The notes below the pieces were generated by a model. It was not told where the DNA came from. It worked only from the letters and a program-made list of their open reading frames with translations, and made no database searches. From positions 337 to 64,336 of the forward strand of contig WRAI01000008.1 in NCBI GenBank assembly GCA_009780275.1: 64,000 nt of DNA. Direction: 5' to 3'. The stretch is from Oscillospiraceae bacterium (GTDB taxonomy: Bacteria; Bacillota; Clostridia; Oscillospirales; UBA929). Every line of letters begins with the position of its first letter. The stretch's first letter is position 1. Shown here in pieces: positions 1 to 46,159 of the stretch. The position numbers were made by a program, and so were the translations under genes.

Positions 1-3000
1 TTTTGCCAATATACGCGTCAATGTCGCCGCCATCATTGATAAGCGTGACGCTTGGACGCACATTGTATTTTACCCGAAAAATCCCCGGTCCCTCCGCATT
101 TATGTCATGGTTTGTAAAAGCATGCTTTCGCTCAACGCCGTTTCCGCTGACATCCATCTCCCACCACGGCTCTATTGTTGTTGTGCCCGGTTCAACTTGC
201 GGATTTGCAACAGCGATCGGCGTATCGATTCGCAGCCCATTGCGCGCCATGTTTCCGGTAAAGGTAAAATCCTGTCCGATAGTGATCAGATTGAGATTGG
301 TATGGGGCACAAAAACACCACCTCCGTCACCTGCTGTGTTATCTGCTATGGACCCCACCGTCCCGCTGAATGAACTGTTCTGCATAACATAAATGCCGCC
401 GCCCTGGGCATTCCCCTCTGTTGTGCTGCCCACAGCTTCATTCCCCACAACCCGGCCACTCGTCGGATTCGTGGTTGTACCGCCGGCCTCCATCACAAAT
501 CTTGCACCATTCACGACCACAACGCCGCCGCCTCGTAATGCACGATTGCCGTAGTCGGGGTTTTCGTCTCCAATAATGCCGCCCGTCATTGTGAAGACGC
601 TGCTTGCGCCATTGACACGCACACCGCTCCCCTCTGTGATGGTGCCAGTTCCCGCGCCTGTCACAGGGTCGGTTCTGGCATGACGGTTATTGCGGATCCT
701 ACCGCCGGACATATTGAATATAGTTGCATTAGCCATATTAACGCCTCCGCCCATTGGGGCGCAGTTTTGTTCTATCGTACCACCACTCATGATGAATCTT
801 CCGTCATCAAGAGCCATGCCGCCACCATTCCAAGCTGTGTTCATGCAAATCTCGCCGCCGCTCATGGTAGCACTTGCGTCATCTCCAATATACACGCCAC
901 CACCGTTAGCTTCTATATCTGTGCTTGTATTGCCCTCGATGACACCGCCTGACATATCAAATCTGCTGCCCGCTCCTGATACCCACACACCGCCACCATC
1001 GCTCCGAGCCGTGTTGTCGCGTACAATTCCACCATCAGCTATGTTGAGAATGCTGGCTTGCGTTGACGCATCAGCAAACGCAGGACACTCTACGGCAATG
1101 CCGCCGCCATTGGTCTCGCTGTGATTTCCCGACACGATAACGCCGTCACTGACGTTAGCTGTTCCTCTGCTGATAAACATACCGCCACCATTGCGTGACA
1201 CGACATGGTTCACGATATGGCCACCACGCAGGTTAACGATGCCGCCGCGCACAAACACGCCGCCGCCGTTGCCTCGTTGGAACGACGCTTCGGTTGATGT
1301 TGCCCGGTTTTCGGCAATCATCCCGTCTTCTACAGTAAATGTACCGCCGTCAGCTGCATAGACCGCGCCGCCGTTCCCTGCCACCGTACTGCCTGTAGCA
1401 ATGTTTTCATTTTCGGTGTGGTTACTTTCGATTCTGCCGTTACGCATGGTGAAGTGGCTGTTTTCGCCTGAAACGAACACACCGCCGCCATTGGCCATGT
1501 TAGCGCTGCCGTTTTCCAAATTAAAATTGAAAGGACTGCCTGCGGCCGCAGCCTGATTTTCAATAATCAATCCATTAGTCATGTTGCCACGCCCGCCATT
1601 AGCAATATAGACGCCACCGCCGTTGCCGGCAAACACATCCACACCGGTAGCCGAAGAGTTCAGCACTCTGATGGCTGCATTGCCCTCAACCCTACCACCA
1701 TTCATATTAAAGGTACTGTTCGCGCCCGAAACAAACACACCCCCACCGTTTGACGTGTTTCTTGCGTTATTGGCAGTTACAGCACTGTGGCCTGTCACCG
1801 CCGCCGTAGCAATATTATCACGAATCACCCCGGTGCTCTGCATTGACTGGCTGCCCATGTTAAAGGTAGCGCCGTTGGCCACAAATACACCACCGCCATT
1901 GCCCGCGACCACATTTGACAAGTTGGAAACTCGCACCCGCTCAGCGCGGTTGCCGCTAATTTCGCCGCCATACATATTGAAGATAGCGTTTGTCCCTTGT
2001 GCAAATACACCTCCACCGTTAGATACGACAGTTGCCGTAAGGTTTCCTGTTGCCCCTGGGTCAGCCGCTACAGTTAACCCGGCATAATTTCCGGAAATTA
2101 CACCGTCATGCATCGTGAATGTGCCACCTGTTCGTATGCTTACAGCACCGCCGTTACTCCTTGTCGTTGTCCGATCAACAGAAGCGTCGATAACTGTCCC
2201 GATAGCACGATTATTTCGAATGACGCCGTTATACATGATAAATTGACCGTGTTCGCTTCCATCCGTTCCTATATTGATAGCACCGCCGGCATTTCTGGCT
2301 GTATTACCTTCCAAAACTCCGTCAAACATAACAAATCGAGCCATAGTAGCATCCTGTCCAAGATTTACAGCACCGCCGTTTCCTCTTACACCGGTTTGTG
2401 CAAAATTATTTCCACCTGCTCCTCTAGCAATATTATCTCGAAGAGTTCCTCCATACATAATCAGTGCTCCGGCACCGCGCACATGTACAGCACCACCGGC
2501 AGCTTGCGCATGATTGGAATGGATGAGAGAGCCCGGCATCAAAGTTAATCTGCCACCCCTTTGTACATCTGTCGCGCCGCTGTTATTCGTTGCGGCGTTT
2601 CTGATGACTGCACCCCGGCACATGATAAAGTGACCGCCAGTGTTGCCGGCAGCTCTTGGCTCTATTGCTACACCGCCACCTGAAAAGCCAGCTATTGCAG
2701 TTACATCCCAGTCGATAGGGGCAGGCGGCACCGCCGGAGCGCCTTGTCCGACAGCGGTGGCGCGATATTGCATAACAAAGTTTCGAATCACTAATCCGAA
2801 TTGATTAGGGTTTCCCGGCTCGCCGATGTCATCATGTGCGGCGTCATTGTTCGCGTTGTTTGCACTCCGTACCATAAACGGCCGCGTGTGGCCGGTCGCA
2901 TTGGTAGAAGTGTCGGTGAGCACGATTTGACCCGGTTCATAACTGCGATGCTGCAATAACGTTGCATCGTATTCGCTTTGTGTGATTTCTCCCGCCGCAA

Positions 3001-3676
3001 GACGTGCGTCAAGATCAAAGGTTTCACTGTGACGACCAACCAAAACAACTGTTGCCCCGCTGCGAACCTCTACTCTGCTGGCAGCGCCGACATTTCCTGT
3101 ATTGATATGGCTCGGGATGATGACATATGTAACTGTGTTTGCAGTCGCTGCCGCTGTAATTGCGTTCAGCACCCTTGTATAAATAGTGTTTGCCGGGGTA
3201 GGAGCAATCTCAACAATGCGATAGTTTGTTTCTCTGGCATACCAGATGCGCGGATCATCTATCTCTTCCTGTGTAAATAAGTCATGCACAGTCAGCGATG
3301 CTCGCAGAAGACCGGGTAGAGCCTCGTCCCGCGACTCTACAGAGAGGGCGTCTTCTATGGAACCATCGTGTCCTGCATCATTTTCATTACTTTCTTCGGT
3401 TTGCTTTCCATCTAGGTCATTTTTTTCAAGTTCCGTTTTACTTTCGACCTCTTCTTCACTAATTTCACTTTCTATGAACTCGCTTTCAACTTCGTCGCTC
3501 TCATATAACTCATAGTCGTCATGTATAGCATTATCGCTATCGTCGCTACTATTAATAATATTATCTCCATAGGTCGTACCTATAAAACTCACAAAAATGA
3601 GATTTATAGCCAAAAAAAGAGCCAGAACACTGAGCAAATAAAATCTTTTTTTTCTTTTTTCATTTGGGAAATACAT
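1..3676 (-). CDS. Very large secreted/cell-surface beta-helix repeat protein (Pmp/PbH1-like); N-terminus in window, C-terminus beyond position 1
   Basis: Manual translation of the minus strand from ATG at 3676 (RBS AAGGAG 6 nt upstream) stays open to position 1, so the ORF track does not list it. It has an N-terminal K-rich hydrophobic anchor (MYFPNEKRKKRFYLLSVLALFLAINLIFV), an acidic D/E/S tract, then dozens of ~25-30 aa repeats of the form NGGGV(F/Y)(V/I)..G..F.M.GG.I..N.A. Confidence 0.8.
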   Translation of the reverse strand, partial: MYFPNEKRKKRFYLLSVLALFLAINLIFVSFIGTTYGDNIINSSDDSDNAIHDDYELYESDEVESEFIESEISEEEVESKTELEKNDLDGKQTEESNENDAGHDGSIEDALSVESRDEALPGLLRASLTVHDLFTQEEIDDPRIWYARETNYRIVEIAPTPANTIYTRVLNAITAAATANTVTYVIIPSHINTGNVGAASRVEVRSGATVVLVGRHSETFDLDARLAAGEITQSEYDATLLQHRSYEPGQIVLTDTSTNATGHTRPFMVRSANNANNDAAHDDIGEPGNPNQFGLVIRNFVMQYRATAVGQGAPAVPPAPIDWDVTAIAGFSGGGVAIEPRAAGNTGGHFIMCRGAVIRNAATNNSGATDVQRGGRLTLMPGSLIHSNHAQAAGGAVHVRGAGALIMYGGTLRDNIARGAGGNNFAQTGVRGNGGAVNLGQDATMARFVMFDGVLEGNTARNAGGAINIGTDGSEHGQFIMYNGVIRNNRAIGTVIDASVDRTTTRSNGGAVSIRTGGTFTMHDGVISGNYAGLTVAADPGATGNLTATVVSNGGGVFAQGTNAIFNMYGGEISGNRAERVRVSNLSNVVAGNGGGVFVANGATFNMGSQSMQSTGVIRDNIATAAVTGHSAVTANNARNTSNGGGVFVSGANSTFNMNGGRVEGNAAIRVLNSSATGVDVFAGNGGGVYIANGGRGNMTNGLIIENQAAAAGSPFNFNLENGSANMANGGGVFVSGENSHFTMRNGRIESNHTENENIATGSTVAGNGGAVYAADGGTFTVEDGMIAENRATSTEASFQRGNGGGVFVRGGIVNLRGGHIVNHVVSRNGGGMFISRGTANVSDGVIVSGNHSETNGGGIAVECPAFADASTQASILNIADGGIVRDNTARSDGGGVWVSGAGSRFDMSGGVIEGNTSTDIEANGGGVYIGDDASATMSGGEICMNTAWNGGGMALDDGRFIMSGGTIEQNCAPMGGGVNMANATIFNMSGGRIRNNRHARTDPVTGAGTGTITEGSGVRVNGASSVFTMTGGIIGDENPDYGNRALRGGGVVVVNGARFVMEAGGTTTNPTSGRVVGNEAVGSTTEGNAQGGGIYVMQNSSFSGTVGSIADNTAGDGGGVFVPHTNLNLITIGQDFTFTGNMARNGLRIDTPIAVANPQVEPGTTTIEPWWEMDVSGNGVERKHAFTNHDINAEGPGIFRVKYNVRPSVTLINDGGDIDAYIGK

Positions 3677-3908
3677 TGAAACTTCTCCTTTCATTACATA
3701 ACGGATACATTTCAATTATACTTTTTTCATAGAGTAATACTACACCCAAAAGGATAAAAAATATCAAAAAAATCGCATCATCGACATTTCACTTGCAGCA
3801 TCTTCCGACAGCCAAACCTTGAAAAGCGGCACAGAATGCACACCATGCGACTTTTTTATTATAGTCTAGAGTCAAGTTTTCTACTGTCGACTCGTCTGCC
3901 AATTCTTC

Positions 3909-3937
3909 TTGACAACCCAATAAATCAATGCTATACT
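3909..3937 (+). promoter_or_regulatory. Sigma-A type promoter for tRNA-Pro (TTGACA-17 nt-TATACT)
   Basis: TTGACA at 3909-3914, 17-nt spacer, TATACT at 3932-3937, about 65 nt upstream of the tRNA. Confidence 0.55.
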
Positions 3938-4004
3938 GCTTTATCAGACAAGCATTACCGTTGAGGGGTAGAAGTCAGACGCCCTCATATTCTAAGCTAA
4001 AAAT

Positions 4005-4081
4005 CGAGGTGTGGCTCAGCTTGGTAGAGCGCTGCGTTCGGGACGCAGAGGCCGCAGGTTCAAATCCTGTCACCTCGACCA
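4005..4081 (+). tRNA. tRNA-Pro (anticodon CGG), CCA encoded
   Basis: A cloverleaf can be drawn by hand: acceptor CGAGGTG/CACCTCG, D arm GCTC/GAGC, anticodon stem CTGCG/CGCAG with loop TTCGGGA, T arm GCAGG-TTCAAAT-CCTGT, then ACCA. Confidence 0.93.
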
Positions 4082-4082
4082 T
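4066..4082 (+). repeat. attL core (17 bp, overlaps tRNA-Pro 3' end)
   Basis: Identical to 12506-12522. Confidence 0.9.
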
Positions 4083-4133
4083 GATTCCCTCAACACGTTG
4101 CGACACAACGATTACGGCGATTACAGAACGCTC

Positions 4134-4154
4134 CGTAACACATTCGTAACACAT
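4134..4154 (+). repeat. Tandem CGTAACACAT motifs (11-bp phase), candidate arm-type recombinase sites at the left end
   Basis: CGTAACACAT at 4134-4143 and 4145-4154. The same motif recurs at 12359-12368, with a degenerate copy at 12370-12379 at the right end. Confidence 0.45.
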
Positions 4155-4177
4155 AAAAATCGATTGCTTGTACAACG

Positions 4178-4206
4178 AACGACACCTCAAATCGGGTGTC
4201 GTTTTT
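4178..4206 (+). terminator. Rho-independent terminator just inside attL
   Basis: AACGACACC / GGTGTCGTT 9-bp stem, 8-nt loop, T-run. Confidence 0.6.
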
Positions 4207-4489
4207 GTTTGTGTACATATGTTCGCATTGTGTGATGTCGATTGATTTCCCAATTGTCATTCGTGCATAAAATCACCCATTATATTATACCATTTTCGAT
4301 TTTAATTGCGTTCGCCATTGCACCCAATTCACACATCATCTACAACCGTCAAAATCAACCGCTAACTGATGAAAACAATGTTTGCAATGTCAACTATGCG
4401 TTCGATTGAAATGCTGTAAAACTGCGAATTTCTGTGTTATGCCGTGAATGCAAAAAATGAACCCATTACGGATTCATTTCATTGCATTA

Positions 4490-4753
4490 TCAAATATGGT
4501 ATTCGGTGTTGTCATGGTCAACATTTGAAATTAAATCATCAATTTTGACACCCAACACAATCGAAATTTTATATAACGTGCGAACTGACATTGTGAATTT
4601 ATCATTGTTGCTTTCAAGTCGTCTGATATAATCATGTGACAAATCAACGAGTTCAGATAATTCTGCCGCAGTCATTTTTATTTGTTTACGATAACGTTTG
4701 ATGTTTTTGCGAATGGTCAAATATATGTCATCATCGAAATCAAATGTACGCAT
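4490..4753 (-). CDS. XRE-family helix-turn-helix regulator (element repressor candidate)
   Basis: 87 aa with an HTH_3-like segment (MTAAELSELVDLSHDYIRRLESN). It is divergent from the cargo gene. Confidence 0.75.
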   Translation of the reverse strand: MRTFDFDDDIYLTIRKNIKRYRKQIKMTAAELSELVDLSHDYIRRLESNNDKFTMSVRTLYKISIVLGVKIDDLISNVDHDNTEYHI

Positions 4754-4905
4754 TGATTATCACCCCACGTTAATTGTACATAAATCAACAAAGGGTGTAT
4801 GTGACTGTGCAGGTCACAAAAATTTGACACACGCCCAAAATCATGTTACCATGTCATTGTCGAAATCGACAAAATATGTAAAAATGACAAGGAGAAACAC
4901 GATTT

Positions 4906-6657
4906 ATGAAAAAGCGGATTTTATCACTGGCACTTGCAATGTTGATGATGTTTTCATTGACAGGTGCGATGTTGACAACGGGGGCGAATGGTGCGATTTC
5001 AAGCATTACATATATTCCAAATCAAATTGCAAATTTCACGATTGAAAATATTGAATTATTTGGCGGACAAATTGATGAAGTCGCACAAGGACAATCGCAT
5101 ACAATTCGTGGAATTGCACCATTTATTCACAATGAAGGACACGAATTTTACGCATGGGGAATTCGTATGATGAACATGGAAACATTTCAATTTGAATGGA
5201 TTGAATTTTTTTATGAGGGTCAAGTCATCACGTTAGGGCAAGACGAATTTGCTGAACGTCATATGATAACAATAATGCCTGTATGGGTACCCGAAAATCA
5301 AAATCCGCCCGAATTAGCAAATGTTTGCACGATTACAGGTCAACTTCCATGTAATTGCGATGTTTTCGTTTGTGACGTTTGTGGTAGAGGTGATTGTGCT
5401 TGCTGTGATGATTGCAATGAATTTCCTTGCGTTTGCGAACCTGTTTTTTGTCCAGATTGCTATTGGAATCCATGTATTTGTGATGTCGAACGCACAGTAT
5501 GGGATTATGACGCAAGAGCAAACGCAAATTCATGGGCGAGAGATTACATAGAAACGGCATGGGATTTTAATATGCTGTCAAGTCGTGTATTGCAAAATAA
5601 CACATGGCAAGCAGGAATTTCACGTTTACACATTGCAGACATTGCTGCACGGTTTATCGAGCATTATACAAATATGACAATCAATGAATTCATTGATTCG
5701 CTTGACGATGATGATTTATACGAAATTCCCGATTTATATGACATTGCAAATTTGTATGAGTTTGATAGTGATGCGTATGCGATGGTTCGATTGGGCATTT
5801 TTCGGGGTTCGCAGTCATATCGTTGGACGGGTTTGCAATTTAGGGCAAATGATTTAATCACACGACAAGAAGCGTCAACATTATTGGGGCGTTTAGTTTC
5901 GTTATTTTGTGGTGCAATTCCGTCGAACATTACAAACGAACAATTGCCGTTTGAGGAAAATTTGCCGTCGTGGGCAAGAAATTATATTCATTTTTTGTAC
6001 AATCAGCAACCGACTCGAATAATGGGAAATACATGCTCACAGGGCGGATATTTATTTCGACCGTTGATGACATTTCCGACACAACAAATGACGATTGCCG
6101 TTGTACGGACATTGAATACATTGTGTGATTTCGGAAATTGTGAATGTGTAATTGACGTTGAACCGCAGACAAAAACAATTTATGTAATTCGTGAAACTTT
6201 TGGCACAACAAATACACAGGCATTTGAAAATTATCAAGCAATGCGGAATGTATTTGACAATGGAAATTTTGCGACATATACGGCGGTTGAGGTTACATGG
6301 CATAGTAGATTTACAGATAACAGCGGAAATTTTGTATTAGAGAATGTTTGGGTTGGTCAAGAAGTTTGGGGTTGGTTAGCAGGAAGTCATGTTTCGGCAG
6401 TTTGGAATGGCAACGAGGGTGCGAGTTTTGATAGGGGTTCAAAAATGGTAGGAGGAATTAGCAATGGGTGGGCAAGAAATAAAGCATTTGGAACAGAGCA
6501 AGCGTTATGGGATTTTATCGAAGGCGATGAAAATTGGGCACATGAAAATCGTTCAACAGGTTGGGGATTTAGAAAATTTTATTTAGTCAACGGTATATGG
6601 ACAACAGGCGATTCAACATGGAGTGGTTTTGATGGGGATTTGATTGTGAGTGCATAA
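4906..6657 (+). CDS. Secreted surface protein: signal peptide, Cys-rich module, three SLH-like repeats, Trp-rich C-terminal domain
   Basis: 583 aa. Signal peptide MKKRILSLALAMLMMFSLTGA. About 50 aa carry ~16 Cys (CNCDVFVCDVCGRGDCACCDDCNEFPCVCEPVFCPDCYWNPCICD). Three SLH-like segments are present (SWARDYIETAW...ISRLHIADIAARF; AMVRLGIFRG...ITRQEASTLLGRL; SWARNYIHFLY...). Confidence 0.65.
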   Translation: MKKRILSLALAMLMMFSLTGAMLTTGANGAISSITYIPNQIANFTIENIELFGGQIDEVAQGQSHTIRGIAPFIHNEGHEFYAWGIRMMNMETFQFEWIEFFYEGQVITLGQDEFAERHMITIMPVWVPENQNPPELANVCTITGQLPCNCDVFVCDVCGRGDCACCDDCNEFPCVCEPVFCPDCYWNPCICDVERTVWDYDARANANSWARDYIETAWDFNMLSSRVLQNNTWQAGISRLHIADIAARFIEHYTNMTINEFIDSLDDDDLYEIPDLYDIANLYEFDSDAYAMVRLGIFRGSQSYRWTGLQFRANDLITRQEASTLLGRLVSLFCGAIPSNITNEQLPFEENLPSWARNYIHFLYNQQPTRIMGNTCSQGGYLFRPLMTFPTQQMTIAVVRTLNTLCDFGNCECVIDVEPQTKTIYVIRETFGTTNTQAFENYQAMRNVFDNGNFATYTAVEVTWHSRFTDNSGNFVLENVWVGQEVWGWLAGSHVSAVWNGNEGASFDRGSKMVGGISNGWARNKAFGTEQALWDFIEGDENWAHENRSTGWGFRKFYLVNGIWTTGDSTWSGFDGDLIVSA

Positions 6658-6770
6658 TCACAACACGCACAATCCACAGTAGAACCGTTTAGTTCATATG
6701 TGAACATGATAACGTGTTGACGATGTGGATAATCGGTTAAACCGCAGAATTAGCGGTCACAATGATAAAT

Positions 6771-6808
6771 AAAAACGCAATGTCGATTTTGTCAACATTG
6801 CGTTTTTT
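6771..6808. terminator. Bidirectional hairpin terminator between convergent element genes
   Basis: AACGCAATGT / ACATTGCGTT 10-bp stem flanked by an A-run and a T-run. Confidence 0.65.
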
Positions 6809-6836
6809 GTGTTCAAAGGAAAATAAAATTTAATAA

Positions 6837-7199
6837 TTATGCAGATTTTTTGATTTCATACGTTTTGTTACAATGATTCATAAATTGATACATTGCATGA
6901 GTAACAATGTTCGTACAATGCACGATTGCAAAAAATATGTCATCATGCAAATCACCAACGTGTTTATTATGTTTTTGTTGATAGATTTCATCAGCGTGTT
7001 TCAATGCGTTTGCAATAATCGAATATGACAATTGATTGTGTTTTTCATTGTATGCAATTAAATCACACGTGCAACGAATGTCATTGCATTTTTCGTCATC
7101 ACGGTTTTTTGATTCGTGATACAATTTCATCATTTCGTTGATGTCGTTTTGCATTTGAGTTTGTGCAGATTTCGAGAGATTTTTGTTTGTATTATTCAT
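6837..7199 (-). CDS. Hypothetical protein (His/Cys-rich, 120 aa)
   Basis: Clean ORF with an upstream RBS region. No recognisable motif. Confidence 0.5.
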   Translation of the reverse strand: MNNTNKNLSKSAQTQMQNDINEMMKLYHESKNRDDEKCNDIRCTCDLIAYNEKHNQLSYSIIANALKHADEIYQQKHNKHVGDLHDDIFFAIVHCTNIVTHAMYQFMNHCNKTYEIKKSA

Positions 7200-7432
7200 T
7201 TGATAATACTCCTTTTTAATGTAAATTTCGTTGATTTCTCAACGATTTATTATGTATATATTATAACATAAAATCAAGCAAAAGTATATGATTTTTGAAA
7301 AGAAAAATAAAGTCGCAAACGCAGACAGCACAAGGTGTTCAGAGGGTCGAGAGGATTATTTTTCAGAAAGTTTTGATATTGTTTTTTGGTTCGCAAAATG
7401 CGGGCAAATTTTATTACAAAGAGGTATTAAAT

Positions 7433-7672
7433 ATGCAGGTGCAATTACAAGGAATTAGAGCATTAGATTTCAAATCAGACAATGGCGAAAATGTCAAAGG
7501 CACACAGTTATTTGTTACATACAATGATGAGAGTGTAAACGGTTTAATGACGGATAAAATTTTCGTCAAACAAGAAGTTCAAATTCCGCAAGGAATCAAA
7601 CAAAACGACATTTTGAATTTGATGTTCAATAACAAGGGAAAAGTCATCGCAATCAGTCAAGCGAAACAATAA
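7433..7672 (+). CDS. Hypothetical small protein (79 aa)
   Basis: ATG at 7433 follows AAAGAGG. The longer track ORF starting at 7295 lacks an RBS. A terminator hairpin follows at 7675-7706. Confidence 0.5.
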   Translation: MQVQLQGIRALDFKSDNGENVKGTQLFVTYNDESVNGLMTDKIFVKQEVQIPQGIKQNDILNLMFNNKGKVIAISQAKQ

Positions 7673-7722
7673 CGAAAAAATGGGCGATTTATTTCGCCCA
7701 TTAAATTTATGAGGAGCATTTT

Positions 7723-8232
7723 ATGAGCAACAAACAAATTAAACAAGTCAAGTTCGGCGCTGTCATTGGTTACATGATTATCATGTTCGCAGTATTTCGC
7801 AGATTTAGCGGTTTTCATATATTCGATGATGTTCGTATCGGAACATTGCCAATTATCGCATTACACGTCATTCTAACGGCGCTCGCTATCGTTGTATTGT
7901 TCGTTATGATTTATGTGTTCGCAACAAATCATTTCGCACGAAAAGCAATACAGGATAAAATCACAAATACGGCGTGTTTGAAAGAGATAACAACGGCAAA
8001 ATTGATTTCGTATAAATTATCAAATACGGATTACGTCACGTTGGCATTTCGTGCGGAGGGTGTTTCCAAAGATGTATGGGAATCGAAACGCAATGCGATT
8101 CAATCGGCAATCAATTATACAATCATTGGAGATATAGAATATTCAAAAAATTGTTGGTCGGTCGTTTATTTCAACGCACGAAAAGGACGGACAAAATCAA
8201 ATCAAGCGAGGTTAGTTGAGAATGATGTTTAA
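7723..8232 (+). CDS. Membrane protein (2-3 TM), probable anchor partner of the FtsK-like ATPase
   Basis: 169 aa with hydrophobic helices (FGAVIGYMIIMFAVF; LPIIALHVILTALAIVVLFVMIYVF). Its 3' end overlaps the next gene. Confidence 0.6.
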   Translation: MSNKQIKQVKFGAVIGYMIIMFAVFRRFSGFHIFDDVRIGTLPIIALHVILTALAIVVLFVMIYVFATNHFARKAIQDKITNTACLKEITTAKLISYKLSNTDYVTLAFRAEGVSKDVWESKRNAIQSAINYTIIGDIEYSKNCWSVVYFNARKGRTKSNQARLVENDV

Positions 8233-8965
8233 TGTTGGATATGATTTGCAAGCATGGAATGATTACAGCGAGAAAAAATACATTACGGCAGATATTTCAT
8301 CAAGCACAAATTCACAAACAGTCATTTGTGGCATGAGCGGAAGTGGTAAGTCATATTTTTTGAATCAGTTATTTGCAAAATTAGTCAAGGCAGAACCCAA
8401 CGGCGAATTTTATTTTGCAGATTTCAAAGGCGATGATTCATTTGCCCATTTAAGGGATTGCAAAAATTATTATTCGTACAAGAACACAATCAAAGCGTTA
8501 GACATTGTGCATGAGAAGTTACAGCAACGAATGAGCGGTATAGATAAATCAAGAAATCAAATAACGTTAATTTTTGATGAGTATGTAGCGAATATTTTAT
8601 CGTTGTTGAATGAATACAAGAAACACGCCCAAGCAGTAATGAATAAAGTATCAGAATTATTGATGATGGGTCGTTCAATGTGTGTTCGATTGATTGTTTC
8701 ATGCCAGCGTCCCGATGCCGCCGTTTTCAATTTTGGTTCAAGATTGAATTATGAAATTTGCATTATTTTAGGTAAGTTTAACAAATCAATTTATGATATG
8801 TTAATGCCGGAACACATCGACGCCGTCAAAATGAAAATTGACAATCATAATTTCGGTTGTGGCGAGGGTTCGTGCGTAATTGGTTCAGATTTGCATTTTA
8901 TCAAAGTTGGCGAAGTTGAAAACATGGAAAATATAAAGAGAATTTGCAAGCAAGCGTTATCATAA
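8222..8965 (+). CDS. FtsK/SpoIIIE (TcpA-like) DNA translocase ATPase domain protein
   Basis: Walker A GMSGSGKS, Walker B LIFDEY, and an FtsK-type LIVSCQRPD motif. The start is ambiguous between 8216 and 8225. Confidence 0.75.
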   Translation: MMFNVGYDLQAWNDYSEKKYITADISSSTNSQTVICGMSGSGKSYFLNQLFAKLVKAEPNGEFYFADFKGDDSFAHLRDCKNYYSYKNTIKALDIVHEKLQQRMSGIDKSRNQITLIFDEYVANILSLLNEYKKHAQAVMNKVSELLMMGRSMCVRLIVSCQRPDAAVFNFGSRLNYEICIILGKFNKSIYDMLMPEHIDAVKMKIDNHNFGCGEGSCVIGSDLHFIKVGEVENMENIKRICKQALS

Positions 8966-8984
8966 TTTTAGAAAACGATATTAT

Positions 8985-9016
8985 AACACGTTCAGATTTT
9001 GAGCGTGTTTTTTTGT
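8985..9016 (+). terminator. Terminator after the FtsK-like gene
   Basis: AACACG...CGTGTT stem followed by T7. Confidence 0.5.
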
Positions 9017-9119
9017 TGCGGTAGAACACAGAATTTTGCGGTTTAACAGATTGGTTCATGTGTTGTCATGGTTGTGTATTGATTGCGAAAATTAGCAAGT
9101 GTGCCGCAGATTTTCAGAT

Positions 9120-9260
9120 GTCACAATGTCACAGAGGTAATAAGAAATTATAGCGTTTTGGGGTTCGTCATGTTGTATAAAATGAGGGTCAAAAGTGGTT
9201 GAAGTTTGTGCAATTTGACGGACGATTTCGGGCGGTTTTTCGAGTTGAAATAGTATAATA
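9120..9260 (+). repeat. Copy A of a bipartite repeated module (GTCACA..GTCACAGAGGTAATAAGAAATTATA ... GGGCGGTTTTTCGAGTTGAAATAGTATAATA)
   Basis: Near-identical blocks recur at 10641-10671 and 10713-10743, so the module brackets rep. Confidence 0.7.
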
Positions 9261-9500
9261 GGAGTATATAAATAATCAAATTAAAGGAGAAAAATTTTTA
9301 TGGGATTTACATAACGATAAAAGATTTTGCGTGAGGGTACGCAAATCGTGCGAAGCGATTGAATTGGATTACTACATTCAATACATAGGTGTTTTGTGAC
9401 ACATTTAGAAAGTCACAGATATAAAGTTCACAAGTTCACATTGAAAACAATATGCACAATTTTATGTGCAAATAAAATAACGTAAAGGATACTATAAAAA

Positions 9501-10631
9501 ATGAGTAACAATAATTTTCCCAATGATTGCATGAACGAAATGCAAAACGAACGTGTACGCAGATTTTTTATCACAATAAATCATTCAGACGTGCGAGAAT
9601 GGACACATGATAAAATTCGTGATGTATGCGAGAAGTTTCCGACAATTAGATATTTTTGTTTTGCAGATGAAATCGGTAACGAAAGTAAGCGTTTACATTC
9701 GCATATATACATAGAATTAGACAACGCAATGCGGTTTAGTACAATGATTAACAATTTCAATGGGGGTCATGTGCAAAAAATACATGAATTTGGTACGGGA
9801 TTTGATTGTCGTAATTACATACGTAAAGATGGTAGGCATTTTGATAAACATGACACAGTTGTTGAAAATACGTTTTATGAATGGGGGCAAGTTCCGCAAG
9901 ACAAATCACAAGGCAAACGCAACGATTGGAGCGATGCACGAACAATGTTAAATGATGGTTTTGATGTTGATAGTATTATTGATACGTTTCCTCATTTAAT
10001 GCGTTATCGTAATATATTAGAAAATGAAATGTTGCATATGAAATCAAGGGGCAGGCAAATGAAAGGTCGTGCGTATGTAACATATATTCAAGGTCGCACG
10101 AATTTGGGTAAAACAACATGGGTATTTGATGAATATGGCGATGATGAAGTATGCAACATTATTGATTACGAAAACAAAAATCAAATATTCGATAGTTATA
10201 TGGGCGAAAGGGTTTTGTTATTAGACGAGTTCGATTCAAGCATTACATATTCGATTTTGAATGGGTACATTGACAGGCGAAAAGTAAAATTGAGTGCGAG
10301 GTATCACAAAAGAACGGTGTGTTATGAAAAAATATACATCGTATCGAATTTGCCGTTAGAAAAACAATATGAAAAATTGAAAAAAGACAATCGTGCATTT
10401 TACGACACGTTCATTCGCAGAATTGATAAAGTTATGGTTTACACAGATTTTTGCAAATTCAACGAATACACGACAAGTGAATATTTTGAGTTGTTAGAAC
10501 ACGACAAATCAATCAATGGTTTTGCGACGAGTGAAAGTAAGAAACAAACGGGATTTTGTAGTATATGTGGCGAATTTGATTGTATGGGCGATAATTGCGA
10601 CGATTTATGGGGCGAGGATTTAGCGAGTTAG
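9501..10631 (+). CDS. rep: Rolling-circle replication initiator with HUH endonuclease + SF3 helicase architecture (CRESS-DNA-virus/pCRESS-like Rep)
   Basis: Motif I RFFITINH, motif II HSHIYIEL, motif III NYIRKDG (YxxK), Walker A GRTNLGKTT, Walker B VLLLDEFD, motif C YIVSN. There is a C-terminal Cys cluster CSICGEFDCMGDNC. Confidence 0.75.
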   Translation: MSNNNFPNDCMNEMQNERVRRFFITINHSDVREWTHDKIRDVCEKFPTIRYFCFADEIGNESKRLHSHIYIELDNAMRFSTMINNFNGGHVQKIHEFGTGFDCRNYIRKDGRHFDKHDTVVENTFYEWGQVPQDKSQGKRNDWSDARTMLNDGFDVDSIIDTFPHLMRYRNILENEMLHMKSRGRQMKGRAYVTYIQGRTNLGKTTWVFDEYGDDEVCNIIDYENKNQIFDSYMGERVLLLDEFDSSITYSILNGYIDRRKVKLSARYHKRTVCYEKIYIVSNLPLEKQYEKLKKDNRAFYDTFIRRIDKVMVYTDFCKFNEYTTSEYFELLEHDKSINGFATSESKKQTGFCSICGEFDCMGDNCDDLWGEDLAS

Positions 10632-10640
10632 GTTTGGTTA

Positions 10641-10743
10641 GTCACAGTCACAGAAGTAATAAGAAATTATACAAGAAACGGATTCGACTTCGGTCGGGTT
10701 CGTTTTTTATTTGGGCGGTTTTTCAAGTCAGAATAGTATAATA
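10641..10743 (+). repeat. Copy B of the bipartite repeated module; contains the rep terminator
   Basis: GTCACAGTCACAGAAGTAATAAGAAATTATA at 10641-10671 and GGGCGGTTTTTCAAGTCAGAATAGTATAATA at 10713-10743. A hairpin plus T-run lies at 10677-10708. Confidence 0.7.
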
Positions 10744-10780
10744 AATGTATAAAATAAACAAAAAAGGAAGTACATTTAAT

Positions 10781-11074
10781 ATGATGGAAAAACGCATGAA
10801 TATTCCGCAAACAACGAGTATTGAAAACGCATTACATATTTATTATCGTCATGCAGAATTAGGCAACAAAGAGATAACAATTTTATTCGGGCAGCGTTCC
10901 CCGAACACGTTGTCGAAATTGAAAAAGATTGCAAAGGACGAAATGCGAGAACGTGAAATGATGTCGTTTGGTTCAAACACGGTCAACACGGTTGTTGCGT
11001 TTGAAGTTTGGGGTATTGACGTTAAGGATTTAGAGCATCGCATGAAAAAGATTAAACAGTTGAAATTAGCGTAA
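10781..11074 (+). CDS. Small putative DNA-binding protein upstream of int (excisionase/regulator candidate)
   Basis: 97 aa from ATG 10781 (RBS AAGGAAG). The call rests on its position immediately 5' of the integrase and an HTH-like stretch (NKEITILFGQRSPNTLSKLKKIA). Function is inferred only. Confidence 0.4.
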   Translation: MMEKRMNIPQTTSIENALHIYYRHAELGNKEITILFGQRSPNTLSKLKKIAKDEMREREMMSFGSNTVNTVVAFEVWGIDVKDLEHRMKKIKQLKLA

Positions 11075-11112
11075 ATAAAAATATGATGATGTTGATTGCT
11101 TGTAAATGGGTG

Positions 11113-11140
11113 TTGACACTACTTTTCAATGTGTTATAAT
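11113..11140 (+). promoter_or_regulatory. Promoter for int (TTGACA-16 nt-TGTTATAAT, extended -10)
   Basis: TTGACA at 11113-11118 and TATAAT at 11135-11140, preceded by TGT. Confidence 0.55.
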
Positions 11141-11177
11141 TCGTTCACAAGCAATCGACAGGAAAGGATAAAAAAAT

Positions 11178-12353
11178 ATGTCGATTAAAAAGATTACAGG
11201 CAAATCAAAAGACGGTTTGCAAAAGTATCATGTTCGTGTAAATTTCATGTGCAACAGAACAGGCAAATATAAGCAGTTCACAAAAATTGCGTATGGGTTA
11301 GAAAATGCAAAAGAATTAGAAATTCAGTTGCAAAAACAAAAAAATGAACATGATATAGATTCAAAAATGACGATTCAGCAGTTATTTGATGAATACATGG
11401 CAAAGAAACGGTTTGAAATTCGTGAATCAACATGGGATACCCATAAGCGACAATATGAAAATCATGTTCAGTCGATTTTAGGCAATATACGAATTAGCAA
11501 GTTGACAACGCAGATTTTGCAGGATTGGAAAACACAAATTGAATCAAAAGGAATGGCGTTGAAAACAAAACAGCATATGTACGGTAATTTACGAGCGTTG
11601 TTAAATTATGCGGTCAAAATGCAGTACATCAATCAGAATTTATTGTTGATTGTCGGCAATTTCAAAGATGCAATGTACACGAAACAGGAAGTTGATTTTT
11701 ACACGTCGGACGAATTTTTGCAGTTTATTGAAGTTGCGAAAGCACAAGCAATAAAACACGAGCGAGAAAATCACGATTGGTCGGAGTATGAGTATTATGT
11801 ATTTTTCAATATTGCGTTTTATTGTGGTTTGCGAAAAAGTGAAATTCATGGGTTGCAATGGAGTGATATTTGTGGTAATATGTTAAGTGTTCGGCGTTCG
11901 ATTCAACAGAAAATCAAAAATGTTGATATTGTGCAACCCCCTAAAACAAAATCGTCATATCGTACAATGCAAATGCCACAAGCATTGATTGACATTTTGA
12001 ACGAACACAAGAAACGCAAACAGCAATTACACAATTTCAGCGATGACAATTTCATTTTAGGCGTTGAGCGTTCATTGCGTAATAGTTCAGTTGCAAATCG
12101 AAATAGTTTATATGCGGAATTGGCACAGTTAAAGCACATACGCATACATGATTTCAGACATTCTCATGCTTCTGTTTTATGCAATGCAAATGTGAATATT
12201 CAGCAAGTTTCAAAACGAATGGGTCATGCACGAGTTGAGGAAACACGGAACACATATTCGCACTTATATCCTCGTGATGTTGAAATTGCCGTTGATGTAT
12301 TTAACAAAATCGACAATGCGAACAAGCGTCCTCGATTGTACGAAATCGCATGA
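11178..12353 (+). CDS. int: Tyrosine site-specific integrase
   Basis: 391 aa with an N-terminal SAM-like domain. The C-terminal catalytic pattern includes GLRKSE, HDFRHSHAS and a terminal Y (NTYSHLY). It lies next to attR. Confidence 0.88.
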   Translation: MSIKKITGKSKDGLQKYHVRVNFMCNRTGKYKQFTKIAYGLENAKELEIQLQKQKNEHDIDSKMTIQQLFDEYMAKKRFEIRESTWDTHKRQYENHVQSILGNIRISKLTTQILQDWKTQIESKGMALKTKQHMYGNLRALLNYAVKMQYINQNLLLIVGNFKDAMYTKQEVDFYTSDEFLQFIEVAKAQAIKHERENHDWSEYEYYVFFNIAFYCGLRKSEIHGLQWSDICGNMLSVRRSIQQKIKNVDIVQPPKTKSSYRTMQMPQALIDILNEHKKRKQQLHNFSDDNFILGVERSLRNSSVANRNSLYAELAQLKHIRIHDFRHSHASVLCNANVNIQQVSKRMGHARVEETRNTYSHLYPRDVEIAVDVFNKIDNANKRPRLYEIA

Positions 12354-43239: not shown

Positions 43240-44346
43240 TTATTTTATCTCCTTAATTGCCTTTACCAGTCCATCAATATCCTCACGCATTGTACCACAC
43301 CCAAATGAAATTCGCAATGCCGACGTAACAATTTCCGGCGGCAATTTCATATCGACAAGCAACTGTTGCCGCTTGCCTTTATTGCAAGCCGTGCCTGATG
43401 AAATGTAAACGCCTTTGTCGGACAGCTTGCGAACCAACACTTCACCGGGCAACGGGGGCAACGCAAAGGCGATGATGTGCGGGGCTTCATGTGGAGGGAT
43501 AATTGTTAGGTTTGGGATGGTTCTTAATTGTTGCAGGGCATAGTTTTTCAAATCTGTGTAGGGGCGGCATTCTGCCGCCCACGGCTCACCCATTGCGTCA
43601 TTTATCATGCACGGGCGGCAGAATGCCGCCCCTACGAAATCCACCGCCACACCAAACGCCGCAATGCCCGATACATTCTCAGTCCCCCGCGGCTCCAAAT
43701 TCTGCATTCTACATTCTGCATTCTGCATTACAATCGCCCCTATCCCCTTCGGCGCGCCAATCTTATGCCCGCTTATGCTCAATGTATGCGGTAATTTCGG
43801 CAACGCAATCTTACCAAACGCCTGCACAGCATCACAATGCACCCATGCATCGGGGCTGCGCTCCTTGGCAAGCGTAAACAATAATTCCGTGTCCGGGACA
43901 GATCCATTTTCGCTGCATACTGCTGTGCAGTTGACCAGCACCGTATCAGCCGTCAATGCCGCCGCAAACTCTTCGGGGTCAATGCCGCCGCTACGTGTTG
44001 GCGGTACGATGGTCAGCGTAAAGCCTTTGGATTTATAGGCATTAAGTTGCGTCGTCACGCTCGGATGTTCGAGTGCAGTCGAAACAATATGCCCGCCGCG
44101 TTTCAACACTGACTGAAACACCAACGCATTGCTCGCTGTGCCGCCCGATGTATATATTATGCAATCAGGCGTACAGCCAACTGCACGGGCAATACGATCA
44201 CTCGCCGCATGAATATATTGCGCCGCACGGACGCCCATAGCGTGTAAACTGGACGGATTGCCATAATTAACCGTCATGGCTTCAAGCGCGATTTCGGCGG
44301 CTTGCGGCAGAACAGGAGTGGTTGCAGCGTGGTCGAGATAAATCAT
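43240..44346 (-). CDS. NifS/IscS-like class V aminotransferase (cysteine desulfurase-like), atypical: in-frame repeat insertions, GGGQExG motif missing
   Basis: IYLDHAATTP, PLP lysine SGHKIGAPKG, SSGTAC active-site Cys region. The internal segments MQNAECRMQN and GAAFCRPCMINDAMGEPWAAECRPY are encoded by repeats. Confidence 0.75.
   Translation of the reverse strand: MIYLDHAATTPVLPQAAEIALEAMTVNYGNPSSLHAMGVRAAQYIHAASDRIARAVGCTPDCIIYTSGGTASNALVFQSVLKRGGHIVSTALEHPSVTTQLNAYKSKGFTLTIVPPTRSGGIDPEEFAAALTADTVLVNCTAVCSENGSVPDTELLFTLAKERSPDAWVHCDAVQAFGKIALPKLPHTLSISGHKIGAPKGIGAIVMQNAECRMQNLEPRGTENVSGIAAFGVAVDFVGAAFCRPCMINDAMGEPWAAECRPYTDLKNYALQQLRTIPNLTIIPPHEAPHIIAFALPPLPGEVLVRKLSDKGVYISSGTACNKGKRQQLLVDMKLPPEIVTSALRISFGCGTMREDIDGLVKAIKEIK
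43558..43635. repeat. 78-bp palindromic element (23-bp perfect inverted arms, each itself a hairpin) inside the nifS-like CDS
   Basis: GTAGGGGCGGCATTCTGCCGCCC (43558-43580) and its exact reverse complement (43613-43635). The length is 26 codons. Confidence 0.85.
43699..43729. repeat. Heptamer tandem repeat ATTCTGC/ATTCTAC x4.4 inside the nifS-like CDS
   Basis: ATTCTGC ATTCTAC ATTCTGC ATTCTGC ATT. The unit matches the loop region of the neighbouring palindrome arms. Confidence 0.85.
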
Positions 44347-46118: not shown

Positions 46119-46136
46119 AGTGTGTATCCTTTCGTA

Positions 46137-46159
46137 GCGGGCGAACTGCGTTCGCCCGC
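46137..46159. other. Perfect GC-rich hairpin GCGGGCGAAC-TGC-GTTCGCCCGC just upstream of aspS
   Basis: 10-bp stem, 3-nt loop. The T-run is on the plus strand only. Confidence 0.7.

Follow-up and report, generated by a model that had tools for sequence, protein, structure and literature searches.

A probable GTAG-tagged REP dimer carried in frame by a NifS-like gene of an Oscillospiraceae bacterium

A palindrome inside a NifS-like gene

We analysed a 64-kb stretch of contig WRAI01000008.1 (positions 337 to 64,336; hereafter the window) from assembly GCA_009780275.1 of an Oscillospiraceae bacterium, in which a perfect 78-bp palindrome lies within a gene for a NifS/IscS-like class-V aminotransferase (Table 1). 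The start of the host open reading frame (ORF) overlaps the stop codon of aspS (ATGA). The Pfam match of the protein agrees with the NifS-like gene proposed by a first-pass annotation made from the sequence alone, and the strand has been corrected to minus. The palindrome lies exactly where that annotation had placed it, with perfect inverted 23-nt arms around a 32-nt spacer: by repeat search and direct sequence reading, the arm at 43558-43580 (GTAGGGGCGGCATTCTGCCGCCC) is 100% complementary to 43613-43635. Each arm is, as noticed earlier, a hairpin in itself, with an unpaired GTAG in front of an 8-bp GC stem (GGGCGGCA/TGCCGCCC) and the 3-nt loop TTC. The 78 nt are read as 26 codons without a stop, corresponding to aa 238-263 of the protein (peptide VGAAFCRPCMINDAMGEPWAAECRPY). 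Matches to the arm arose in none of 100 dinucleotide-preserving shuffles. The predicted RNA fold of the region reaches -63 kcal/mol (z = -6.3 against shuffles), and its minimum-free-energy structure pairs arm with arm.

This anatomy is that of the GTAG-tagged repetitive extragenic palindromic sequences (REPs). These are palindromic units of 20-40 bp with an unpaired GTAG at the hairpin end, a GC-rich stem of 6-13 bp and a loop of 2-3 nt. They occur as singletons, as head-to-head or tail-to-tail dimers (spacers mostly of 20-100 bp) and as clusters, a minority of copies lie in frame within ORFs, and they are associated with genes of REP-associated tyrosine transposases (RAYTs) in arrangements called REPtrons (PMC3733652). 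In the window, the unit is 23 nt long, and both arms carry the GTAG, facing outward. We consider it very probable that the element is a head-to-head dimer of GTAG-tagged REPs, inserted in frame and carried by the host protein as a disordered loop.

The exact host protein is on record as a product of 'MAG: Oscillospiraceae bacterium' (MAG, metagenome-assembled genome), and its next relatives are 55% and 47% identical. Because the nearest homologue among 5.8 billion proteins is just 55% identical, no pre-insertion (empty-site) allele was recovered. In an alignment of 71 sequences, aa 242-254, the central 13 residues, face a gap in all 70 homologues, and no homologue carries a corresponding peptide. 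At the insert site, the two closest homologues have 12-14 residues vs 31 in the window protein. The net gain is about 17-19 aa relative to these two and about 11-13 aa relative to typical homologues, less than the 20-25 aa first estimated.

Alignment to solved cysteine desulfurases placed the extra residues at the identical spot. An AlphaFold2 model obtained from the 71-sequence alignment has a mean predicted local distance difference test (pLDDT) score of 91.6 and a predicted template modelling (pTM) score of 0.89, and it resembles the NifS-like structure 1ecx and Escherichia coli IscS 1p3w with TM scores of 0.84-0.86. The pLDDT is below 50 at residues 244-251 and 253-259. Helices 225-242 and 261-274 enclose the stretch 243-260, for which DSSP finds no secondary structure. 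In the model, the residues encoded by the REPs thus form a flexible loop where the pyridoxal-phosphate (PLP) domain meets the helix that leads to the small domain. Around it, the protein keeps all 27 invariant residues, including the PLP lysine K195, the catalytic C321, H194, S192, D172, H94 and R345. The S-x-H-K PLP-lysine motif, the catalytic Cys loop and the overall fold are those of class-V aminotransferases.

A repeat family of gut bacteria and its RAYT genes

The core GTAGGGGCGGCANNNTGCCGCCC was found in at least 120 loci (at least 166 copies) among the GTDB species representatives, which hold one genome per species. The loci are designated here by L and a number. The matches listed are mostly from MAGs of Oscillospiraceae, Acutalibacteraceae, Faecousia, Ruminococcus and other Clostridia, sampled from the guts of termites, ruminants, rabbits, chickens and humans, and they include one cultured isolate, Pseudoflavonifractor sp. 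MSJ-30. Also among them are MAGs labelled Zoogloeaceae, Desulfuromonadales and others, and some MAGs are represented by several contigs (11 of Peptococcaceae Gx485_bin131, six of Enterobacteriaceae Hs463_bin3 and five of Synergistales PG1894_167). Their loop variants are ATC (63), ACC (42), TTC (27), TCC (17) and TTT (9). The location is mostly extragenic: the median longest stop-to-stop ORF spanning a REP copy has 124 aa. Just a few copies are embedded deep in ORFs that match a protein family (RAYT genes, an amidase in L001 and an ABC ATPase in L131), and the copy of the window is one such exception; most others are outside long ORFs or 5' of the real start.

With a relaxed definition, 330 GTAG hairpins of several stem types were retrieved from 0.8 Mb of loci, arranged as singletons and as 45 head-to-head, 31 tail-to-tail and 48 tandem pairs. 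The spacers of the 45 head-to-head pairs cluster at 2 nt and at 20-33 nt, and the 78-bp unit of the window is within the commonest head-to-head size class. The JGI metagenomes contain 29 further perfect head-to-head homodimers with a TTC loop, of 66-86 bp, in datasets Ga0123352-57, Ga0131853, Ga0099364, Ga0082212 and Ga0209628; these identifiers are mostly the ones that appear on termite-gut MAG records in our list of loci. Across the 30 identical-arm homodimers, including that of the window, every spacer is different (20-40 nt). The spacer of the window gave only chance 10-13-mers against 150 related loci (blastn-short), and its exact 23-mer had no match in the JGI metagenomes, in which the window's own locus was likewise unmatched. 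REPs also form tandem arrays in one orientation, with five or more copies and a period of 35-40 bp (L046 3493-3655, L103 ~4057-4361 and L061 1380-1481), and the array of L103 directly adjoins a RAYT gene.

These loci extend GTAG REP/RAYT systems, described earlier mainly in Proteobacteria, to gut Clostridia. The 2013 survey of Di Nocera (BMC Genomics 14:522; PMC3733652) contains no mention of Firmicutes or Clostridia, whereas Oscillospiraceae and other gut Clostridia form the core of the present family, whose arm also occurs in MAGs of other phyla. Furthermore, the head-to-head spacers of that survey tend to be conserved, unlike those found here. Later work noted group 1 RAYTs in Clostridia and left their REPs undescribed.

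An identical 20-nt REP core, together with closely related RAYTs, was observed in MAGs of different phyla, mostly from termite gut: Enterobacteriaceae bacterium Hs463_bin3 (L023, L034, L035, L060, L072 and L096), Synergistales (L020, L038, L065, L080 and L115) and Peptococcaceae Gx485_bin131 (L028-L112). Some of these copies lie in very AT-rich flanks. This distribution suggests horizontal spread of the REP/RAYT system across phyla, unless the bins are contaminated, and is hard to reconcile with a strictly vertical inheritance of REPs and their RAYTs.

A complete REPtron of the window's REP type is present in L136, where a RAYT ORF follows an identical-arm head-to-head dimer (Table 1). The ORF has an HUH motif (MPNHVH) and a Tyr motif (YIENNP), a REP overlaps its stop codon and a further inverted copy lies downstream. 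Its product has 222 detectable homologues, many of them named 'REP element-mobilizing transposase RayT' by JGI, and its best PDB match is E. coli TnpArep (4er8, E 0.012), across the HUH and Tyr motifs. The relative encoded in L105 matches NCBIfam REP_Tyr_transpos (E 1.8e-18, under the equivalog cut-off) and, weakly, Pfam Y1_Tnp. RAYT genes accompany the repeats in six related contigs of the identical arm type: L136, L103, L105, L061, L087 and L153. In L153 (ENA ERZ27257292 k141_1101646, an analysis accession number close to that of the window's contig), the RAYT, of the window's REP type, lies at 10001-10594 in a type I restriction-modification cluster, flanked by an R-subunit-like gene and the gene for the S subunit. 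The same contig has a symmetric GTAG-hairpin-CTAC unit at 6903-6929, downstream of gyrB.

The RAYTs of this clade carry their own REP type in frame twice, inverted, on either side of the segment coding for the HUH motif. In nearly every homologue (protein set P0121-P0240), the peptide V-G-A-x-x-x-R-P lies about 45 aa before the HUH motif, which is closely followed by G-R-x-x-x-A-P-T. Each peptide is the reverse-complement translation of the other; both match the REP type around the gene and co-vary as the pairs VGAA[S/F]CRP/GRQ[D/N]AAPT, VGANCVRP/GRTQFAPT, VGADIIRP/GRIISAPT and VGATCGRP/GRPQVAPT. We verified the internal pair at the DNA level in L105, L061, L087, L136 and L151; in L151, it is the sole REP within 20 kb. 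Only overlaps with the 5' or 3' end of RAYT genes are reported in PMC3733652, and no description of RAYT-internal REP pairs was found in the key REP/RAYT papers, within an incomplete coverage of the literature. The REP hairpin might be a functional part of the transposase gene in this clade, an idea that we put forward tentatively and with some doubt. If functional, the internal pair could act as a master copy, as a site of autoregulation or as a device that ties changes in the DNA target to changes in two protein loops. REPs of this family would then evolve under coding constraint, and this would account for their five open frames out of six and for their in-frame occurrence in host genes, the NifS-like one included. 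Partial tandem duplications were also seen in RAYTs of this clade (e.g. GRPQVNGRPQVAPT).

Origin of the insert and rival explanations

The proposal that a REP-type palindromic repeat sits in a coding region is borne out by the REP anatomy, the family of at least 120 loci, the RAYT association and the lack of the central residues in all 70 homologues. Presumably a RAYT acting in trans creates or moves the REPs of this family; as an HUH/Y1 single-strand DNA transposase, it would read the hairpin and its GTAG tag. We infer that, following RAYT mobilisation in the genome of the window, one REP dimer entered the NifS-like gene as a single unit, where the final PLP-domain helix gives way to the small-domain helix, and that the gene still yields a working protein. 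The dimer may have persisted because its length is a multiple of three, because the frame used has no stop and because the 26 encoded residues form a loop that the fold would accommodate.

Reading through such repeats is feasible in most frames. Of the six frames of a single REP, only the one reading the TAG of GTAG contains a stop, and the five open frames encode VGAAxCR, RGGxLPP, GRQxAAP, GGRxPPL and AAxCRPY. For the 29 natural homodimers, 47% of the orientation-by-frame combinations are stop-free, and 11% are stop-free with a length that is a multiple of three. Two other in-frame dimers were found in genes for an ABC ATPase (L131) and an amidase (L001), the latter appearing to replace native residues (Table 1). 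Intragenic GTAG and CGTC REPs are known from several species, and dimers or grouped repeats, which code for 20-30 aa, make up more than 50% of them (Di Nocera 2013, PMC3733652). The insertion of an REP dimer in frame is, therefore, an event type catalogued in 2013, and the finding itself is ordinary: another such dimer carried as a surface loop. It does entail an annotation hazard, since REP-encoded peptides such as VGAAxCRP, GRQxAAPT, GGRxPPL and AAxCRPY are to be expected as odd inserts in many proteins of these genomes.

The element resembles REPINs in being an inverted REP pair capable of forming one long hairpin (Bertels & Rainey 2011, PMC3116915; Bertels et al. 2017, PMC5581495). The mobilisation of REPINs is attributed to a domesticated Y1 transposase present in single copy, and REP type and RAYT co-vary. 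Classical REPINs, which are mostly found in Gammaproteobacteria with RAYTs of groups 2 and 3, have a conserved spacer, form populations of near-identical copies in each genome and are vertically inherited (PMC3116915, PMC5581495). In contrast, the present dimers have unrelated spacers, their copy density in the window is low, and the same REP is found across phyla in one habitat. The conserved spacer that would mark doublet and spacer as the replicating unit is lacking among the copies.

The analogy drawn at first pass with Rickettsia palindromic elements (RPEs) holds for behaviour, in that an in-frame palindromic repeat adds a tolerated surface peptide, and fails for family. RPE-1 is longer than the window element, and RPE-4 and RPE-6 are CGTC-tagged REPs without a dedicated transposase (PMC3733652), whereas the window arms carry GTAG and a cognate RAYT exists in related contigs. 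With the ends of IS200/IS605 elements and their TnpA (PMC8266576), the family shares subterminal DNA hairpins and a short guide or cleavage motif read on single-stranded DNA, and RAYTs are kin to that TnpA in their fold and in the HUH and Tyr motifs. Unlike IS200/IS605, the dimer lacks a transposase gene, and its hairpins are on opposite strands rather than being left-end and right-end hairpins of one strand.

Several observations weigh against an insertion of this kind. In the window, this dimer is accompanied by a single further REP, of another subtype: searches with the arm and its 19-nt core (up to three mismatches) found no further match in the 64 kb. Neither a six-frame scan for HUH motifs nor tblastn with three RAYTs detected a RAYT gene in the window. 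Its own genome is not among the loci listed, which leaves further copies and a resident RAYT presumptive for this organism, and RAYT-catalysed transposition of the REPs is likewise presumed. The spacer is unique, as in all 30 of the 30 head-to-head homodimers, which does not fit a REPIN replicating as a unit with a conserved spacer. Finally, without the 78 bp the protein would fall 7-9 aa short of its nearest homologues, which indicates either that the insertion was not clean or that the boundaries of the event were not those of the palindrome.

A rather unlikely alternative is that the REP dimer sits in a decaying paralogue or pseudogene, in which repeats accumulate under relaxed selection and the frame is open by luck; it bears on the consequence of the insertion, not on the identity of the element. 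Within 172 bp of the dimer, the gene contains a heptamer array. It stands in for the GGGQE loop, a feature that at least 90% of the homologues conserve and that the host protein lacks (9 aa shorter there). Two intergenic-type repeats this close in one gene suggest relaxed constraint. Other positions conserved in at least 90% of the homologues are changed (E71A, N74A, N144C and N145S), the pLDDT falls to 62 over aa 211-220, and all cysteine-desulfurase models of NCBIfam score far below their cut-offs (the best, NifS, at 199 vs 531 bits). However, the 368-aa ORF is intact, its overlap with the aspS stop suggests translational coupling, all 27 invariant residues are present and the remaining model is confident. 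Moreover, two stop-free in-frame indels would be unlikely in a dead gene, and the two nearest homologues (P0002 and P0003) have the same NNE-to-CxxN divergence, which makes part of the gene's oddity clade-wide.

Co-option of the hairpin pair in cis, either as a structure that sets the half-life of the mRNA or makes ribosomes pause between the two protein domains or as a DNA site for a host protein such as gyrase or integration host factor (IHF), seems to us improbable. Binding of gyrase and IHF has been reported for E. coli REPs. A cis role would be consistent with the very stable RNA hairpin described above, with the perfect identity of the arms, which suggests a recent event or maintenance, and with the position of the element exactly at a domain boundary; RNA-level and DNA-level roles have been ascribed to extragenic REPs (PMC3733652). 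The insert is, nonetheless, conserved in no homologue, no Rfam family reached its threshold and no terminator-like tail is present, and the other intragenic copies are in unrelated genes at unrelated positions.

We regard an artefact of metagenome assembly as very improbable. The window corresponds to a MEGAHIT-style metagenome contig (ENA ERZ27257297 k141_861198), and repeats can mislead assemblers, but the identical protein is recorded from NCBI, JGI and ENA, two long contigs carry it, the frame is preserved, and independent assemblies and an isolate genome contain similar dimers by the dozen. A fragment of a CRISPR array, superficially suggested by 23-nt repeats around a 32-nt spacer, or an ancestral loop of the NifS lineage that is palindromic by chance can practically be dismissed, given that the copies are inverted (loop TTC vs GAA, GTAGs outward), that 0 of 70 homologues have the central residues and that the arm is a widespread repeat unrelated to NifS.

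Other classes of element were also tried and rejected. The label 'REP/terminator-type' of the first-pass annotation stands in its first half only: no T-run follows the hairpin, and no terminator-like site was detected at 43558-43635 on either strand (tails ACACAGATTT and GAAATCCACC). As a CRISPR array, the element would have two copies only, inverted, which as direct repeats are 79% alike purely through the palindromy of each arm. A miniature inverted-repeat transposable element with target-site duplication was set aside, the flanks (...AAATCTGT / element / GAAATCCA...) having no adjacent duplication; an AAATC pentamer, displaced, on both sides is the sole flank repeat. Rfam returned only sub-threshold lookalikes of miRNA hairpins (34.6 vs a threshold of 80.7 bits). 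Lastly, a native NifS spacer between two independent REP insertions was rejected: removal of the arms alone (46 nt) shifts the frame and creates a TGA after four codons, so the spacer is not native coding sequence.

Other repeats in the window and related loci

Table 1. Positions of the features discussed, in the window and in related loci
Sequence	Feature	Positions	Strand	Remarks
Window	Host gene, NifS/IscS-like class-V aminotransferase, 368 aa	43240..44346	-	Pfam Aminotran_5, E 2e-49
Window	Whole element, 78-bp head-to-head (GTAG outside) REP homodimer	43558..43635	.	Host codons 238-263
Window	REP arm 1, GTAG + GGGCGGCA-TTC-TGCCGCCC	43558..43580	+	On the sense strand of the gene, end residues of the insert, AAECRPY
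Window	Spacer, 32 nt	43581..43612	.	Codes roughly for CMINDAMGEPW
Window	REP arm 2, exact inverted copy of arm 1, GTAG outward	43613..43635	-	On the sense strand of the gene, VGAAFCRP
Window	Heptamer array, ATTCTGC x4.4, one variant copy, 31 nt	43699..43729	+	Antisense in the host ORF, aa 207-216, MQNAECRMQN
Window	Single GTAG-tagged REP of another subtype, GTA-GCGGGCGAAC-TGC-GTTCGCCCGC, 10-bp stem	46134..46159	+	Between an APH-like gene and aspS
L136	Identical-arm head-to-head dimer	42-115
L136	RAYT with internal REP pair, 171-aa ORF	286-801		170 nt downstream of the dimer
L105	RAYT with internal REP pair	381-869
L103	RAYT with internal REP pair	3521-4009
L083	RAYT with internal REP pair	6602-7129
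L151	RAYT with internal REP pair	10001-10519
L061, L087	RAYTs with internal REP pair
L131	In-frame dimer	4953-5020		VGAAFCRP...GRQNAAPT, linker between the two ABC domains of a 571-aa ATPase
L001	In-frame dimer	~986-1046		Inside an amidase (GatA-like by sequence reading)
L078	Heptamer array	3657-3687
L016	Heptamer arrays	740-763, 1237-1268
L008	Heptamer array	5388-5419
L005, L045, L093, L120, others	Heptamer arrays

A generic scan of the window for GTAG followed by a hairpin found one site in addition to the element, at 46134. The GC-rich hairpin cited at first pass at 46137-46159 is indeed related: it starts at 46134 with a GTAG head of its own and is an REP of another subtype, which brings the REP subtypes in the window to two. 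Its core is that of the REP embedded in RAYTs of the VGANCVRP/GRTQFAPT type. On the plus strand, this REP is followed by GTTTTATCAT and has a terminator-like score, and no gene of that strand ends there.

The heptamer array in the NifS-like gene, which has replaced a conserved loop close to the active site, is one of a stereotyped kind. We counted 65 such arrays in 865 kb, each of 31-32 nt with 4.4-4.6 copies and usually one variant copy, the unit varying from one array to another (for example, AATTGAC AATTGAC AATgGAC AATTGAC AATT). They are mostly intergenic and often lie directly upstream of a ribosome-binding site and ATG, or at most 150 nt from an REP. In the literature, they most resemble the intergenic heptamer repeats of the TAACTGA type known from Beggiatoaceae, Cyanobacteria and Bacteroidetes, some sets of which are split by a variant unit, with a few reverse-oriented copies inside ORFs (PMC4679880). 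Like the inverted REP pair inside the RAYT genes, these arrays deserve a study of their own.

In a block at positions 4001-12000 of the window, the G+C content is 0.35-0.39 vs about 0.50 elsewhere, and the GC skew is positive, opposite to that of the remainder. This block may be a horizontally acquired island.

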